From: an uncultured Clostridium sp.
GTDB lineage: Bacteria; Bacillota; Clostridia; TANB77; CAG-508
Direction: 5' to 3'
Length of the DNA stretch: 64,000 bases
Assembly: GCA_947575745.1 (NCBI GenBank)
Contig: CANPOS010000004.1
Location: 223-64,222 of the forward strand
The position numbers and the translations under genes are program-made. Of the stretch, positions 2,078-9,969 are shown piece after piece (position 1 is the stretch's first letter; each line of letters starts with the position of its first letter). Under the pieces are notes generated by a model. That model did not search any database. It was not told where the DNA came from and worked only from the letters and a program-made list of their open reading frames with translations.

Positions 2078-2488
2078 ATGCAAGACATATATAGAATAGA
2101 AAAACAAAAGACAATTCCTATTAATCAAAAAGAAATTTATTTTCCTAAAAATGATGGAAACATTATATTCAATGAAGAAATAACATTATTAGGTGATAAT
2201 GTTGATGGAATATATGACAATAATAGGCTTAGATTAATTATTCATAAAGATAAAGATCTAATTGATATTTTTGTAGCTTCTTATGAACAAGATTCAGGAC
2301 TAGGCTATTGGTCTTTTTGTCTATCATCAGAAGAATATGCTAAATTTACAGATATGAATGATTTAATTAAACAGATATTTATAGAAGGAATCTATGTAGA
2401 TAGAGGGGTTAGCATGGCAACTGGAATTAAAGAAAAAGAGGCAACTGACCTTTTAAAACAAAATGATGAATATTGCTTGGATATTTAG
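2078..2488 (+). CDS. hypothetical protein with acidic/aromatic C-terminal tail (..DEYCLDI)
   Basis: ORF; C-terminal tail matches the motif shared by neighbours. Confidence 0.4.
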   Translation: MQDIYRIEKQKTIPINQKEIYFPKNDGNIIFNEEITLLGDNVDGIYDNNRLRLIIHKDKDLIDIFVASYEQDSGLGYWSFCLSSEEYAKFTDMNDLIKQIFIEGIYVDRGVSMATGIKEKEATDLLKQNDEYCLDI

Positions 2489-2515
2489 AAATTTAATGAA
2501 AGGAGAATTAAAAAT

Positions 2516-3019
2516 ATGAGAAAACAATATGATGATTTTACACAAATGAAGTTAAAAGATATGTGTAAAAGTATGAGTGATATGACATATACCTATATTA
2601 ATCCAGATAGTGGTGAACCAACAAAAGTACCACCATCACACTATGAAAAAATACTAGAGGCTGTAAAAGAAAATTATATGGGAGAAATAACAAGTAGGCA
2701 ATTTCTTACCATTATGTATAATCAACTAAATGCTTTAAAGAAAGAAGATGAAAAATATTTTAGGCAAGCTCTCCTATGTATTGATATGGGAATAAATCCA
2801 AAAGATTTAAGAGTAGATGAGCAAATTGCTATTTCATTTACTGATAACTATATGGATGATAGACAAAAACAAGAAAAAAAGAACTTTCATTTATTAAGTC
2901 AGGACATAGTAGATACTTATAATGAGTCAAAAGAAAATCCTATGATTCAAGTAAGGGCTATGGAAGTTACTGATGATATAGATAAAGAGCAAGATGATGA
3001 TATTGATTATGATATATAG
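2516..3019 (+). CDS. hypothetical protein, C-terminal tail ..DDDIDYDI
   Basis: ORF with RBS-like aaggagaa upstream; shared tail motif. Confidence 0.4.
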   Translation: MRKQYDDFTQMKLKDMCKSMSDMTYTYINPDSGEPTKVPPSHYEKILEAVKENYMGEITSRQFLTIMYNQLNALKKEDEKYFRQALLCIDMGINPKDLRVDEQIAISFTDNYMDDRQKQEKKNFHLLSQDIVDTYNESKENPMIQVRAMEVTDDIDKEQDDDIDYDI

Positions 3020-3027
3020 GAGGAACT

Positions 3028-5037
3028 ATGGAAATACAAGATTTTGGAGAAAAAATTGGTGGTGCAAAAAAAGATTTATGGAAAGAGCGAGGTCTTTCTG
3101 TAGATGATTTATCCTATATGAATGATGCTGAAAGAATCCAATTAATAAAGAAAGATAATATATGGAAAAAGCCTAATTATCAAGAAATGGTTGAAAGTGG
3201 TTTACCTGTTAGAGTAGCATATTTTATAAAAACTATAAGAGATGCTACTCCTACAAAACCTATAATCTTACTAAGAAATAGTGATATAGAATTAAAACAA
3301 AAAGAATACATTGATTTCGTTAGTAAATTACGTAATTATGTAATGAATTTAAAACAAGAAGATGATATTTTAACATTTTATGAAAAATTTTTAAGCAATT
3401 ATATTATAAGAGATAAGAGTTCATATTATGTAAGAGTTTCACCAGAAGTTTCAAGTGCCGTTGATAATAAATTATTACAAGCATCACAAATAAGTAACTT
3501 TTATAATATGGATAAAGAAATAAGAAAAAAACAATTTTGTTATACAGATGATGAAAAAGTATTATCTAATTTTGATATATTTGTGTATGATAATGATAAT
3601 GTTAAATTGACAATAGATTATAATAATAGAACTGTTATTGAAGTAAAAGAAGGACTTGGAAAAAGGTTTATATATCCAAAAGAAGATTTTGCAGATATAT
3701 TAACTTGGAAAGAAAACACTATATTTATAATGGATTTAACAACAAGAAATATAATCAAAAACAATTTAGAAAATATTGATGCAGCAGAAAAATTTATATT
3801 AGAAAACTATAAACAACAAAGCAATGAGAAAACAAATAATTCAAAAAATAGAAAGAAAAAATTTATTCCAGAACAACTAAAATATATTACTCGTGATGGT
3901 GAAGATTACAGAAATAATAGAAATATTACTGGTGAAGATATGCTAAAAACATTTCAATTTAAGGGTGGAGAATTTGGAAACTGGCTCAATGAAAATGACA
4001 GACAACAATCTCTAAATTATGGATATGATGCCTTGCTCGATCTGAGTAAGGCTCTTTCAATATCTCCTACAGATATTTCTTTAGATGGTAAATTATCTAT
4101 TGCATTTGGTTCAAGAGGTAGTGGAGATGCTTTGGCTCATTATGAACCAACTAGAGAAGTAATCAATTTGACTAAGATGAGAGGTGCTGGCAGTTTGGCT
4201 CATGAATGGGGCCATGCTTTGGATGATATTATAGGTAAACAATTAGGATATAGTGGATTTCTAACAAATAATTTTAGATATTCAGATTCTACTTCTGAAA
4301 CAATAAAAAATGTTGTAGATGCAATGAAATATAAGACTGTTTGCAATGAAGAAACAATGAAAAAACAAAATGAAGAATACTTAAAAAGAGTAACTAGAAT
4401 GAAGAATCTTGTTAATAGTTTCTTTCCATCAGAACATCTAAACGAAAAACAAACTGAATTAAAAGATATTCTTATACAAAACTTAATACACAATGCTGAA
4501 ACAGCATCTAATAATTTTTTAGAATATTTTACTAAAGGAACTGGAAATAAAGATATAGATGACCTATCCAATTTAAGAAAAGAAACTGTAGGTAGAGTTA
4601 TTTCTAAAGAAGATAGAAAGCAAATTGCACAACTACAAAATTATGTGTGTTCGAGTAAAAAACAAATAGGAAAAGAACAAAGAGTAGAAACAGATTTTTA
4701 TAAAAATTCTATTAAATTTGATGAGATATATGCTAAATCAGGGCATGATTATTGGTCTACTACAATAGAGATGTTTGCTCGTAGTTTTGCTTGTTATGTT
4801 AGTGATAAATTAGGATATAAAAGTGATTATTTATGTGGGCATGCTAACCTTGCTATAGGTTCTATTCAGAATAAAAATAATGAACCAGAAGTAATAAAAG
4901 CATTTCCAGAAGGCAAGGAACGACAACTAATAAATGAAAAAATAGATAAATTAATTGATTTTTTAAAAGAAAAAAATATTTTACATGATAACAAAACACA
5001 AGAAATAGAATCGGATTATGATTACGATTATGTTTAA
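3028..5037 (+). CDS. large putative zinc metalloprotease (HEXXH: SLAHEWGHALDD), ArdC/polyvalent-protein-like; tail ..SDYDYDYV
   Basis: 669-aa ORF; HEWGH zincin motif mid-protein; RBS aggagg upstream. Confidence 0.5.
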   Translation: MEIQDFGEKIGGAKKDLWKERGLSVDDLSYMNDAERIQLIKKDNIWKKPNYQEMVESGLPVRVAYFIKTIRDATPTKPIILLRNSDIELKQKEYIDFVSKLRNYVMNLKQEDDILTFYEKFLSNYIIRDKSSYYVRVSPEVSSAVDNKLLQASQISNFYNMDKEIRKKQFCYTDDEKVLSNFDIFVYDNDNVKLTIDYNNRTVIEVKEGLGKRFIYPKEDFADILTWKENTIFIMDLTTRNIIKNNLENIDAAEKFILENYKQQSNEKTNNSKNRKKKFIPEQLKYITRDGEDYRNNRNITGEDMLKTFQFKGGEFGNWLNENDRQQSLNYGYDALLDLSKALSISPTDISLDGKLSIAFGSRGSGDALAHYEPTREVINLTKMRGAGSLAHEWGHALDDIIGKQLGYSGFLTNNFRYSDSTSETIKNVVDAMKYKTVCNEETMKKQNEEYLKRVTRMKNLVNSFFPSEHLNEKQTELKDILIQNLIHNAETASNNFLEYFTKGTGNKDIDDLSNLRKETVGRVISKEDRKQIAQLQNYVCSSKKQIGKEQRVETDFYKNSIKFDEIYAKSGHDYWSTTIEMFARSFACYVSDKLGYKSDYLCGHANLAIGSIQNKNNEPEVIKAFPEGKERQLINEKIDKLIDFLKEKNILHDNKTQEIESDYDYDYV

Positions 5038-5118
5038 TAGAAGGAGGATTTTAAGCTGAATATTGATGAATTTTTAGATAATGATAAAACTGTTGCAAAA
5101 GTAGGAGAAGATAGTATC

Positions 5119-8600: not shown

Positions 8601-8616
8601 AAATTTGAGATTAAGT

Positions 8617-8650
8617 GGAGCATTTTTGCTTCACTTTTTTCAAGAATCAA
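8617..8650 (+). terminator. rho-independent terminator (aagtggagca-ttttt-gcttcactt + T-run)
   Basis: Inverted repeat followed by TTTTTT directly after the stop at 8600. Confidence 0.45.
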
Positions 8651-8832
8651 CTCAAAAAATTTTCTCCCAGCGGGCTAAAAGGGTTTTAGGGAGTTTTCCC
8701 TAACAAGCAGTAGAGGTGTCAAAACACCATGCTTGCGAATGTTAGTCGGTAAAAAATACCTGACTCATTCGACGCAAAATGAGATTTTGCTCATCTCTTA
8801 ATACTTCGCTTTGCTAGTATTAAGATTTTTAA

Positions 8833-9368
8833 ATTTAAGGAAGGTGGTTTATACGGATATAAAAAAACAAATTGAAAGATTTAATAAAGATGAAATTGAA
8901 AAGGTCTTTAATAAATATACAGCGATTTATAAAGGCAAAATGTCTTTAGAAAAAAATAAAAAATATATTTTAACAATAAAGAAATTTGAAGTATTTTTTA
9001 GATTATATATTGATGAAAATATACAAGTATATATTAGAACAAATACTTTAAATAGTCATGAAGTAGCCAATTATGAATTTGTAAGTTTTAAAGAACTACA
9101 AATTGAGGATATGGACCAATACAAGAAATGTGTAAGACAATTTTTTAAAAACATAATTAAAGAGGTCGAGAATACTCTTTTTTGTCCTGAACATCACAAA
9201 GAGATGATACCAGATAATGCAACAAAAGAGGAAACAGATAAAGGCTGGTACAACATTTATGAACAAAGGTTATTAACAAAATTAAGCTATAATAATCAAA
9301 AGGAATTTATTGAATGGCTTAACAAAGTTAGTGATAAAAAATATATTGCACAACAAAAGAAAATTTGA
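8833..9368 (+). CDS. hypothetical protein (probable GTG start after the RBS aaggaagg)
   Basis: The ORF-track start at 8811 lies inside a hairpin; a GTG at about 8833 has a good RBS. Confidence 0.35.
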
Positions 9369-9384
9369 TTATGGAGGAATTAAA

Positions 9385-9969
9385 ATGAGATGTACTTTAC
9401 ATTATCAATACAATAAGTCTGGTATTAAAATATTTGTGTCAAAAGGATCTGAGCCAACAGGAATAAATGTATATATAGATTATTCTAAATGGAGTGAAAA
9501 TAGACTAAAATATTTAGATGCAATTTTAGATAAGCATTTTAATCAATTATTAGATAGCTGCAATCAATCTATTTTAAATTATAAATTAAATGCTAAGGAT
9601 ATAGAAAATACTAAATTAAATGTAAAAAATACGATTACTCGTATAGTAAAAGAGAATGATGAAAAGTTAAGGAATCTAATTGTGAAATTAGATATATCAA
9701 TTAAATCATGGTATCTTAAAGAATATCCAAGTGATGATGTAGGAGAAACATTATCTGATACTGCTACTTTTCTGGAATTAAATAATTTACTAAACTCTGG
9801 TAAAGGTAAAGATGTATATGAATTACTTGGTGGAGATTCTGATACTATTGTTAGAGAAAGATGTTTTGAGAAATTATGCCAATTAACAGACCAAACTTAT
9901 GATACTGTTTATAATAAATGGCTTCATGCAGAAGAATCAAAAACAGAAGAATATGATATAGAAAAATAA
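9385..9969 (+). CDS. hypothetical protein, tail ..TEEYDIEK
   Basis: Likely start MRCTLHY with RBS ggagg; the upstream part of the listed ORF overlaps the previous gene. Confidence 0.4.
   Translation: MRCTLHYQYNKSGIKIFVSKGSEPTGINVYIDYSKWSENRLKYLDAILDKHFNQLLDSCNQSILNYKLNAKDIENTKLNVKNTITRIVKENDEKLRNLIVKLDISIKSWYLKEYPSDDVGETLSDTATFLELNNLLNSGKGKDVYELLGGDSDTIVRERCFEKLCQLTDQTYDTVYNKWLHAEESKTEEYDIEK

Follow-up and report, generated by a model that had tools for sequence, protein, structure and literature searches.

The first ~14.6 kb of a 64,000-nucleotide stretch of DNA from an uncultured Clostridium sp. (contig CANPOS010000004.1; the whole stretch is called the window below) form the right-hand part of an integrative and conjugative element (ICE) of 25% GC. 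Ten co-oriented genes within positions 594–9969 encode proteins whose C-terminal ends alternate acidic and hydrophobic residues, as does one gene of a second element (31498–32409). These tails are most likely a flexible C-terminal docking motif, with Asp or Glu alternating with Tyr, Phe, Ile, Leu, or Met, carried by the soluble accessory proteome of the ICE. All of the tails quoted in a preliminary description of the window were found at their genes, and two had been overlooked, at 5119–6105 and 594–1151. The tailed genes and one untailed gene among them are listed here, with orthologous tails in brackets; public gene starts and the neighbourhood gene order were read from assemblies carrying an identical LPD1 protein (the product of 3028–5037).

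594–1151, + strand: 185-residue protein of no known family; tail ...REIEMN (orthologue ...KEIEMS)
2078–2488, + strand: 136-residue orphan protein; tail ...DEYCLDI
2516–3019, + strand: 167-residue orphan protein; tail ...DDDIDYDI (DIDYGY, DIDYDY, DMDYDY, DMDYDF)
3028–5037, + strand: 669-residue LPD1/CLCA_X zincin (HEWGH); tail ...SDYDYDYV
5119–6105, + strand: 328-residue orphan protein; variant tail ...VDDMFE (VDEMFD, EYDIDI in locus L005, DLYDYE)
6133–6648, + strand: 171-residue orphan protein; tail ...NEYDIDI
6668–7564, + strand: 298-residue orphan protein; tail ...DDEYDLGICG (EIDLEMCV, DYDYDMCE, NDLEIFG)
7576–8223 (longest open reading frame from 7555), + strand: 215-residue orphan protein; tail ...ENDIECEY (FEYDYN, EMDFEY, IDMEVEL)
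8235–8600 (longest open reading frame from 8220), + strand: 121-residue orphan protein; tail ...SEIDYDYE (DFDYDY, DMEIEY, DLEIEI)
8844–9368 (longest open reading frame 8811–9368), + strand: 174-residue orphan protein; no tail (...AQQKKI)
9385–9969 (longest open reading frame 9310–9969), + strand: 194-residue orphan protein; tail ...EEYDIEK (orthologue ...GIDYDR)
31498–32409, + strand: 303-residue orphan protein of a separate small integrative element; tail ...DKDDYDI

Two genes inside the run, 8811–9368 and 9984–10631, are untailed. Searches of the window's tailed proteins against Pfam, NCBIfam, and PHROGs recognized LPD1/CLCA_X only. The preliminary description had likened the position and organization of the run to those of leading-region anti-defence gene sets; these searches returned no known anti-defence family among the window's tailed proteins; the tailed proteins of relatives include an orphan methylase and RadC. 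What it had called a HEXXH protease does contain HEWGH and is more exactly an LPD1/CLCA_X zincin. Its picture of tightly packed, overlapping genes gives way, with the public gene starts, to gaps that mostly measure 8–80 nt.

To score tails strictly, we required an alternating acid/hydrophobic four-residue motif within the last eight residues. Seven of the ten genes starting within 2078–9969 carry it, compared to 2.1% of internal windows (binomial P = 2.4e-10), and 20,000 residue shuffles gave a mean of 0.33 tailed genes and a maximum of 4. We then gathered 87 loci of this ICE family via LPD1 and via a VirB4-like protein, most of them via LPD1. The strict tail is present in 334 of their 1525 same-strand open reading frames (21.9%), while controls range from 0 to 1.4% overall, with none among 116 opposite-strand reading frames and 5 among 963 (0.5%) in another ICE lineage. 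In 1108 distinct proteins of the related loci, a five-residue version of the motif has 236 occurrences at 0–3 residues from the C-terminus and 217 across every position lying over 30 residues away from it. It is a real motif and a statistically significant one.

Within these loci, 14 of the 59 protein families with at least five members have at least 60% of their members tailed, six more have 30–60%, and several others display looser variants such as ...EEIDI and ...INLDY. The tailed families comprise the orphan N6/N4 methylase (~90% of distinct tails), RadC-JAB (89%), the LPD1 zincin, and ~15–20 orphan families. No tail at all was found in the VirB4, PrgI, NlpC/P60, LPXTG adhesin, VirD4-type coupling protein, relaxase, NikA, and radical SAM families, or in the family of the 9984–10631 product; the tail is restricted to soluble accessory families. 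The coupling protein of this ICE family is of the VirD4/TraG type (PF02534, PF12696) and ends in ...[FY]EDL[KV]I.... VirD4-type coupling proteins of both ICE lineages have a conserved near-C-terminal [FA]-E-[DE]-L (IQFEDLVIKK, TAEDLEAPAV; examples are L164:6303-7850 with its homologues and L023:15270-17117). A Butyrivibrio plasmid methylase that is 45% identical to the ICE methylase ends in ...KQACSA, and the 35 co-oriented genes that surround it are all untailed; because this homologue and its array lack the tail, we regard the tail as an add-on. In viral contigs, a low-power search for the DNA pattern encoding DYDYDY followed by a stop codon gave sporadic single hits and no arrays.

Every tailed family of the window keeps its tail in orthologues, with exchanges between Asp and Glu and among Tyr, Phe, Ile, Leu, and Met, and with 0–3 trailing residues allowed, and every tail-less family stays tail-less. 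The preliminary description had made its proposal depend on conservation of the motif in orthologues, and conservation across the related elements is what we find, in proteins that are themselves unrelated. The LPD1 protein illustrates this best. Among 86 distinct C-termini from homologues of 48–100% identity that retain an upstream LH[DE] anchor, 83 have a hydrophobic-acid-hydrophobic core 0–3 residues from the end; none has a basic residue at positions -2 to -7, and less than 1% have one at the last position. The 7–10 residues before the tail form a polar linker, and the distance from anchor to C-terminus varies. In the AlphaFold model of the LPD1 protein (mean pLDDT, the predicted local distance difference test score, of 85), residues 657–669 fall below 50 and are disordered, and docking of the tail back onto the zincin or its HEXXH cleft was not seen in this model; the tail is thus predicted to be undocked, and hence free to bind. 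Across the tails, 31–65% of the last seven residues are acidic, at alternating positions; Asp and Glu are spread over ~8 residues, with no long Glu-rich block. We also considered the tails as relics of polyprotein cleavage sites, which is not supported, as the giant polyvalent LPD1 proteins contain no repeated internal tail-like sites.

Selection acts on the tail at the protein level, since orthologues keep it with in-class exchanges, synonymous codons vary, the downstream DNA is unconserved, and the Shine-Dalgarno sequences of the next genes lie 3′ of the stop codons. Synonymous codons are used with at least as much variety in 202 distinct tailed 3′ ends of related loci as in the gene bodies (GAC, 19% in tails vs. 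11% in bodies; TAC, 15% vs. 11%; GAG, 23% vs. 14%), and the 12 bases after the stop codon are not conserved. A role of the tail as the ribosome-binding site of the next gene or as a DNA repeat is rejected on these grounds. The tails might otherwise be suspected of being an artefact of AT-rich composition, since the codons for Asp, Glu, Tyr, and Ile are AT-rich and the genome has 25% GC, or a DNA- or RNA-level signal such as a recombination site or translational coupling. This is hardly credible, because composition is ruled out by the shuffles, the internal-window frequencies, and the untailed opposite-strand reading frames; elements of 37–38% GC are tailed as well, with terminal Arg encoded by CGT, CGG, AGG, and AGA, and the freely varying codons, unconserved flanks, and position of the ribosome-binding sites argue equally against a nucleic acid signal.

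ICE lineages differ in tail dialect. In ICEs of Lachnospiraceae, Oscillospiraceae, and Erysipelotrichales (46–54% GC; L020–L084, e.g., L023:9057-15273), LPD1, LPD34, DUF3846-YodL, DUF3801/PcfB, a Toprim primase, and unnamed proteins are encoded directly upstream of the coupling-protein gene, and most of them end in another way, with a run rich in Lys and Arg and then PE[R/I/L] or something close to it (...MQL, ...AISI). PE[R/I/L] stands in the last four residues of 4 of 15 genes (P ~1e-7, for a motif picked after seeing the data). An element of 37% GC has tails of the form ...[LI][DE]xER (LDFER, NEIER, DDNVR), while a 38% GC “Candidatus Fimenecus” contig (L018:4322-21847) has around LPD1 an unbroken co-oriented series of 18 genes, of which 10 show the core (P = 5.5e-6). 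Nearly all 18 ends on this contig, the longest run seen, are acidic/hydrophobic (HFEIEK, NVEIKE, EDIDLM, EDIELD, VEIDID, and others). The orthologous LPD1 protein switches its tail type together with its element. Element-specific dialects of this kind are not what docking on a conserved host hub should yield.

It is quite possible that the tails dock on a receptor encoded by the element (the coupling protein or the relaxosome) and thereby mark their proteins for transfer. A receptor in the transfer apparatus is favored because of the lineage dialects and because the tail is excluded from structural and DNA-processing core proteins. Tentatively, the tails could be a protein translocation signal, the first for a Gram-positive conjugative type IV secretion system (T4SS) to be definable from sequence, in the form of a portable tag of ~6–8 residues with lineage dialects; the methylase, protease, RadC, and orphan “establishment effectors” would then be injected into the recipient before gene expression, and small integrative elements could copy the tag to hitch-hike. 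In the mechanism we propose, a variable polar linker would join the tag to most soluble accessory proteins of one Firmicutes ICE family, and all tagged proteins would dock on a single element-encoded receptor, likeliest the VirD4-type coupling protein or the relaxosome bound at the origin of transfer (oriT). Made in the donor from the long transfer operon, the tagged proteins would be drawn to the mating channel and would enter the recipient along with the DNA, to act there before the element's own genes can be expressed. The receptor's identity, the translocation of the proteins, and the location of the oriT at 8601–8830 are what we infer here.

Transfer is further favored by the polyvalent-protein domain repertoire of the array, by its apparent co-transcription with transfer genes, by the copy of the tail on a small element that lacks transfer genes, and by the precedents of DotM, TraD-TraM, and the F plasmid. 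An F-type T4SS translocates plasmid maintenance and leading-region proteins (PMC8406263; a further F-plasmid precedent for protein transfer is PMC11288057), and polyvalent-protein domains have been predicted to be co-transferred (PMC5512222). The suggestion of the preliminary description, that the tails mark these proteins for a common partner or for transfer into the recipient, is still the best reading, on the indirect evidence of the element-specific dialects, the confinement of the tail to soluble accessory proteins, and its presence on the co-resident small integrative element. We found no shared C-terminal tail described in the literature on Gram-positive conjugative elements; C-terminal docking and translocation tags as such are known, and an alternating acidic-aromatic tag with lineage dialects on Gram-positive ICE accessory proteins is the part for which we found no prior description.

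Several points weigh against a transfer tag. The relaxase, the one certain T4SS substrate, has no tail. Expression of classical leading-region genes is believed to take place in the recipient, which would leave a secretion tag without a purpose. The dialects co-vary with the whole element and with host GC, so that element-specific and host-specific partners are not cleanly separated, and acidic tails and basic PE[R/I/L] tails may be functionally non-equivalent. Finally, distant LPD1 homologues carry QxxLF, a clamp-binding-like motif, at the same position, with intermediate forms, which points to a host hub.

The last of these observations leads to the main rival, rather unlikely in our estimate, in which the tails are degenerate binding motifs for the sliding clamp (DnaN) and tether the accessory proteins to clamps on incoming replicated DNA or at donor forks, with the clamp serving as a tool-belt. 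The clamp hexapeptide QLxLxL follows a hydrophobic-x-hydrophobic-x-hydrophobic pattern, and an E. coli clamp motif is QADMF. The tails have the same hydrophobic spacing as QLxLxL, with hydrophobic residues at alternating positions in most of them, and VDDMFE resembles QADMF. QxxLF or Q-Φ-x-Φ-x-Φ (Φ, hydrophobic) occurs in the last 16 residues of 15 of 150 diverse LPD1 representatives, where 1.2% would be expected (P = 8e-10), and graded intermediates (QLALF, QMSLFGELF, GQFSLFDIENEMEMDY, GQFSFDFDLDEMER, GQLAFDFDL, GQLEFEF, NLEFDYDY) lead through the hybrids GQFSLFDIENEMEMDY and GQFSFDFDLDEMER to the window type of tail. In a related ICE (L169), a small protein encoded just upstream of the relaxase has a C-terminal QLELFD, and several tailed proteins act on DNA (the methylase, RadC). 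In addition, the clamp motif of Firmicutes PolC, QLSLF, is C-terminal (PMC12309361), and the clamp is used by the Tn3 transposase (PMC11417375) and by MuC of phage Mu (PMC12867686). Against this, changes at positions 1, 4, and 5 of the clamp motif weaken or abolish binding (PMC12309361), and none of the 11 window tails has Gln at the motif start, one has a Met-Phe pair (VDDMFE), and none has Leu-Phe. The basic PE[R/I/L] dialect of sister ICEs in the same host classes does not resemble a clamp motif, even though the clamp pocket is conserved; where LPD1 ends in GQLEFEF, its neighbors lack Gln; and the host replisome would face competition from 10–20 clamp ligands for each element. Many distant LPD1 zincins end in canonical-looking clamp motifs (VQLALF, EQMSLFGELF, QMSIFDY), and the small protein encoded just upstream of the relaxase in one ICE ends in EQLELFDDIEEGD (these observations concern P0125–P0273, L169:4707-6473, and L169:7948-8388); they suggest that the LPD1 proteins of some elements bind DnaN.

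Another partner might be sought inside the accessory set itself, the tails binding the LPD1 zincin as substrate, product, or pseudo-substrate, or binding some other element protein, in complex formation or processing without secretion. LPD1 is common to all arrays examined and itself carries the tail, polyvalent-protein peptidases have been proposed to process their partners (PMC5512222), and dialects would follow from co-evolution with an element-encoded hub. We nonetheless judge this improbable, as the ubiquity of LPD1 is partly circular (most loci were selected through it), AlphaFold leaves the tail outside the HEXXH cleft, the giant polyvalent LPD1 proteins lack internal tail-like repeats, and the small integrative element is tailed without having an LPD1 gene. 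The C-terminal position, disorder, and exposure of the tails would suit a role as degrons that confine the proteins to a brief period, as would accessory or establishment functions needed only transiently. Known bacterial C-terminal degrons, though, consist of non-polar or basic residues, and ClpXP recognition is blocked by acidic ones close to the end; acidic tails are unlike them, and element-specific dialects would be unexpected for host proteases, which makes this idea less probable again. Least probable of the proposed partners are those of SSB (the protein that binds single-stranded DNA), whose C-terminal tip the tails would mimic, competing for or recruiting SSB-interacting proteins. 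The resemblance, drawn already in the preliminary description, consists of an acidic run with a hydrophobic end (DDDIDYDI vs. DDDIPF) in a context of single-stranded DNA transfer, but it fails at the defining residues. No tail ends in [IL]-P-F, a regular-expression scan of all the loci gathered before L169 returned none, and the SSB of L169, a related ICE, keeps its own canonical ...DDDIQF tip, unlike its tailed neighbors. The alternation and the 0–3 trailing residues likewise misfit a recognition that depends on the terminal carboxylate.

The position of the run relative to transfer functions turns on a non-coding element:

8601–8830, no strand assigned: structured non-coding element of ~7 hairpins, candidate oriT (230 bp, intergenic)

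Its folding is far from random expectation on the two strands (z = -6.7 and -7.2), and its GC content is above that of the surroundings. In more than 30 related ICEs the element retains 69–87% nucleotide identity, which is high for non-coding DNA beside neighboring proteins that are only ~50–65% identical, and it displays the invariant blocks TCTCCCAGCGGGC, GGGTTTTAGGG, TTCCCTAAACAGC, and CACCAAGCTGGCGAAT together with compensatory hairpin changes. Wherever its position was checked, the main tailed run ends on one side of it and the relaxase module lies on the other; one tailed gene of the window (9385–9969) is on its relaxase side. An Rfam scan of positions 1–16000 assigned it to no family, and a search with the MOBQ-type nic consensus gave matches no better than chance. 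We consider 8601–8830 to be probably the oriT; it may also act as a single-strand origin or a promoter. In F-like plasmids, leading regions are oriT-proximal and are transcribed toward the oriT. With 8601–8830 read as the oriT, the run would be placed and oriented in the same way. LPD1 and the radical SAM protein are the only members of the run with a recognized family; the ICE encodes an orphan methylase a short way upstream of it, and RadC, SSB, and a primase are found in relatives. All genes of the run are on the + strand, and the leading-region placement suggested in the preliminary description would hold, in position and orientation, only if 8601–8830 is the oriT, with both the oriT and the polarity putative.

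The remaining genes of the ICE in the window that bear on the run are the following:

1151–2065, + strand: radical SAM protein of the SPL/PA0069/“mobile pair B” kind, at the head of the run; no tail (...LEKVA)
10014–10631 (longest open reading frame 9984–10631), + strand: conserved 205-residue protein; no tail, conserved end segment GY[PI]YD[IN]F
10693–11100, + strand: NikA-like ribbon-helix-helix (RHH) relaxosome accessory protein (Pfam); no alternating tail (...KQMEEE)
11102–12745, + strand: MobA/VirD2-type relaxase; no tail

In the assemblies that carry the identical LPD1 protein, the strand of the run carries, upstream of it, genes for PrgI-like and VirB4-like proteins, an NlpC/P60 hydrolase, and the orphan N6/N4 methylase, along with variable cargo. 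The run in the window is followed by the NikA-like RHH protein, the relaxase, and a C5 methylase; the gene upstream of the relaxase had been named mobC in the preliminary description, and its product instead matches the NikA-like family of Pfam. The sole terminator-like hairpin of the run (12750–12769) is directly 3′ of the relaxase gene, and none is present between the tailed run and the relaxase. The missing terminator and the same-strand T4SS genes upstream are consistent with expression together with the transfer machinery.

The radical SAM protein is the best-conserved product here (83–89% identity in relatives where LPD1 shows 62–68%). It is missing from some tail-bearing relatives and is thus not strictly linked to the tails; a role as obligate tail-modifying partner was rejected for this reason and because it belongs to the DNA-lyase-like SPL (spore photoproduct lyase)/PA0069 group. 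Sequence and fold searches of the PDB with the 9984–10631 protein and with LPD1 yielded nothing significant, and megablast of the region against plasmid and phage collections gave no match. The C5 cytosine methylase is split into 12803–13330 (175 residues, with the Pfam domain) and 13350–14141 (263 residues), and the same split appears in the gene calls of both independent assemblies that reach that far (L001 and L004); the gene could be a pseudogene, carry a fixed frameshift, or encode an enzyme that is naturally split. A 114-residue, CxxC-rich reading frame at 15152–15496 on the - strand resembles, by eye, the zinc-ribbon part of a large serine recombinase, and may be a remnant of the ICE integrase at the element end. 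It is followed by what appears by eye to be a histone-like, HU-type gene (15875–16168).

The second tailed locus of the window is a small integrative element of ~4.5 kb (~29.8–34.3 kb) that encodes a 161-residue protein, small open reading frames, a sigma-70 r4-like protein, the 303-residue orphan, and the following integrase:

32775–34292, same small element: 505-residue tyrosine integrase

It has no transfer genes and no LPD1 gene, and the neighboring genes differ between assemblies. Only the 303-residue protein is tailed, with DYDI preserved in homologues of 53–59% identity and DKEF at 40%; its structure model (pLDDT 49.5) is too poor to use. A public collection lists the element in 534 blocks. 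An ABC-F gene is its neighbor, joined in some assemblies by genes that are EF-G-like (tet(M)-type, judged from domain content) or belong to the rRNA-adenine-dimethylase family (erm-type).

The tails bear on the way conjugation systems, Gram-positive ones above all, choose their protein substrates, and on the early deployment of proteins by arriving elements. If the tails are indeed a transfer tag, the “effectors” of abundant gut ICEs, 10–20 unrelated proteins in each element, would become definable from sequence. Dozens of orphan families would stand out as functionally linked candidates for a part in anti-defence or establishment, and a peptide for pull-downs and possibly a portable delivery tag would be at hand. 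If the clamp is the partner, a mobile element would be tethering its whole accessory proteome to the replication clamp.

Several known systems share features with this arrangement. Like leading-region anti-defence islands, the run is co-oriented, adjoins a putative oriT, and is transcribed in the direction of that oriT; no shared tail has been described for those islands, and oriT and polarity are deduced in our case. As in the SSB tip (DDD[IL]PF), an acidic run with a hydrophobic end follows a flexible linker, although the tails lack the Pro-Phe terminus. β-clamp motifs (QL[S/D]LF, QxxLF, QLxLxL) are terminal and linker-attached with the same hydrophobic spacing, whereas the window tails have neither Gln nor Leu-Phe and are far more acidic. 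The polyvalent proteins described by Iyer et al. 2017 (PMC5512222) draw on the same repertoire beside T4SS genes (LPD1, LPD34, YodL, DUF3846, Toprim primase, RadC, orphan methylase), of which we met LPD1 in the window and LPD34, DUF3846-YodL, Toprim, DUF3801, and RadC in relatives. Here the domains are encoded by separate genes, each with its own tail, and therefore are not polyvalent proteins themselves; that study describes no shared C-terminal motif. The tagged set could accordingly be viewed as an “unfused” version of polyvalent proteins, in which each piece would bear its own address label.

Further parallels come from C-terminal recognition in secretion and conjugation. In F-like plasmids, the acidic-aromatic tail of TraD docks in a groove of the tetramerization domain of TraM, an oriT-bound RHH protein, with allele-specific recognition (PMC3159463), which recalls both the composition of the tails and their dialects, and an RHH (NikA-like) gene lies just downstream of the run. 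The F tail, however, is on the coupling protein, while here the tails are on ~10–20 accessory proteins and the coupling protein has no alternating tail (...FEDL...). In the Dot/Icm system, DotM of the coupling complex binds acidic, Glu-rich C-terminal signals, and, from species to species, acidic signal and basic receptor residues tend to occur together (PMC5802825). That system translocates effectors, whereas ours is a Gram-positive conjugative T4SS for which translocation is putative. Its signal is a diffuse Glu-rich region of 20–30 residues as opposed to strict alternation in the last ~8, and no DotM-like protein was seen in the ICE family, which has a VirD4/TraG-type coupling protein where Dot/Icm has the type IVB DotL/DotM/DotN coupling complex. 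The Legionella Dot/Icm E-block and the Agrobacterium VirB/D4 signals are nevertheless, like the tails, short, disordered, charge-defined C-termini on unrelated proteins, and the basic PE[R/I/L] dialect of the sister ICEs recalls the positively charged tails of Agrobacterium VirB/D4 substrates.

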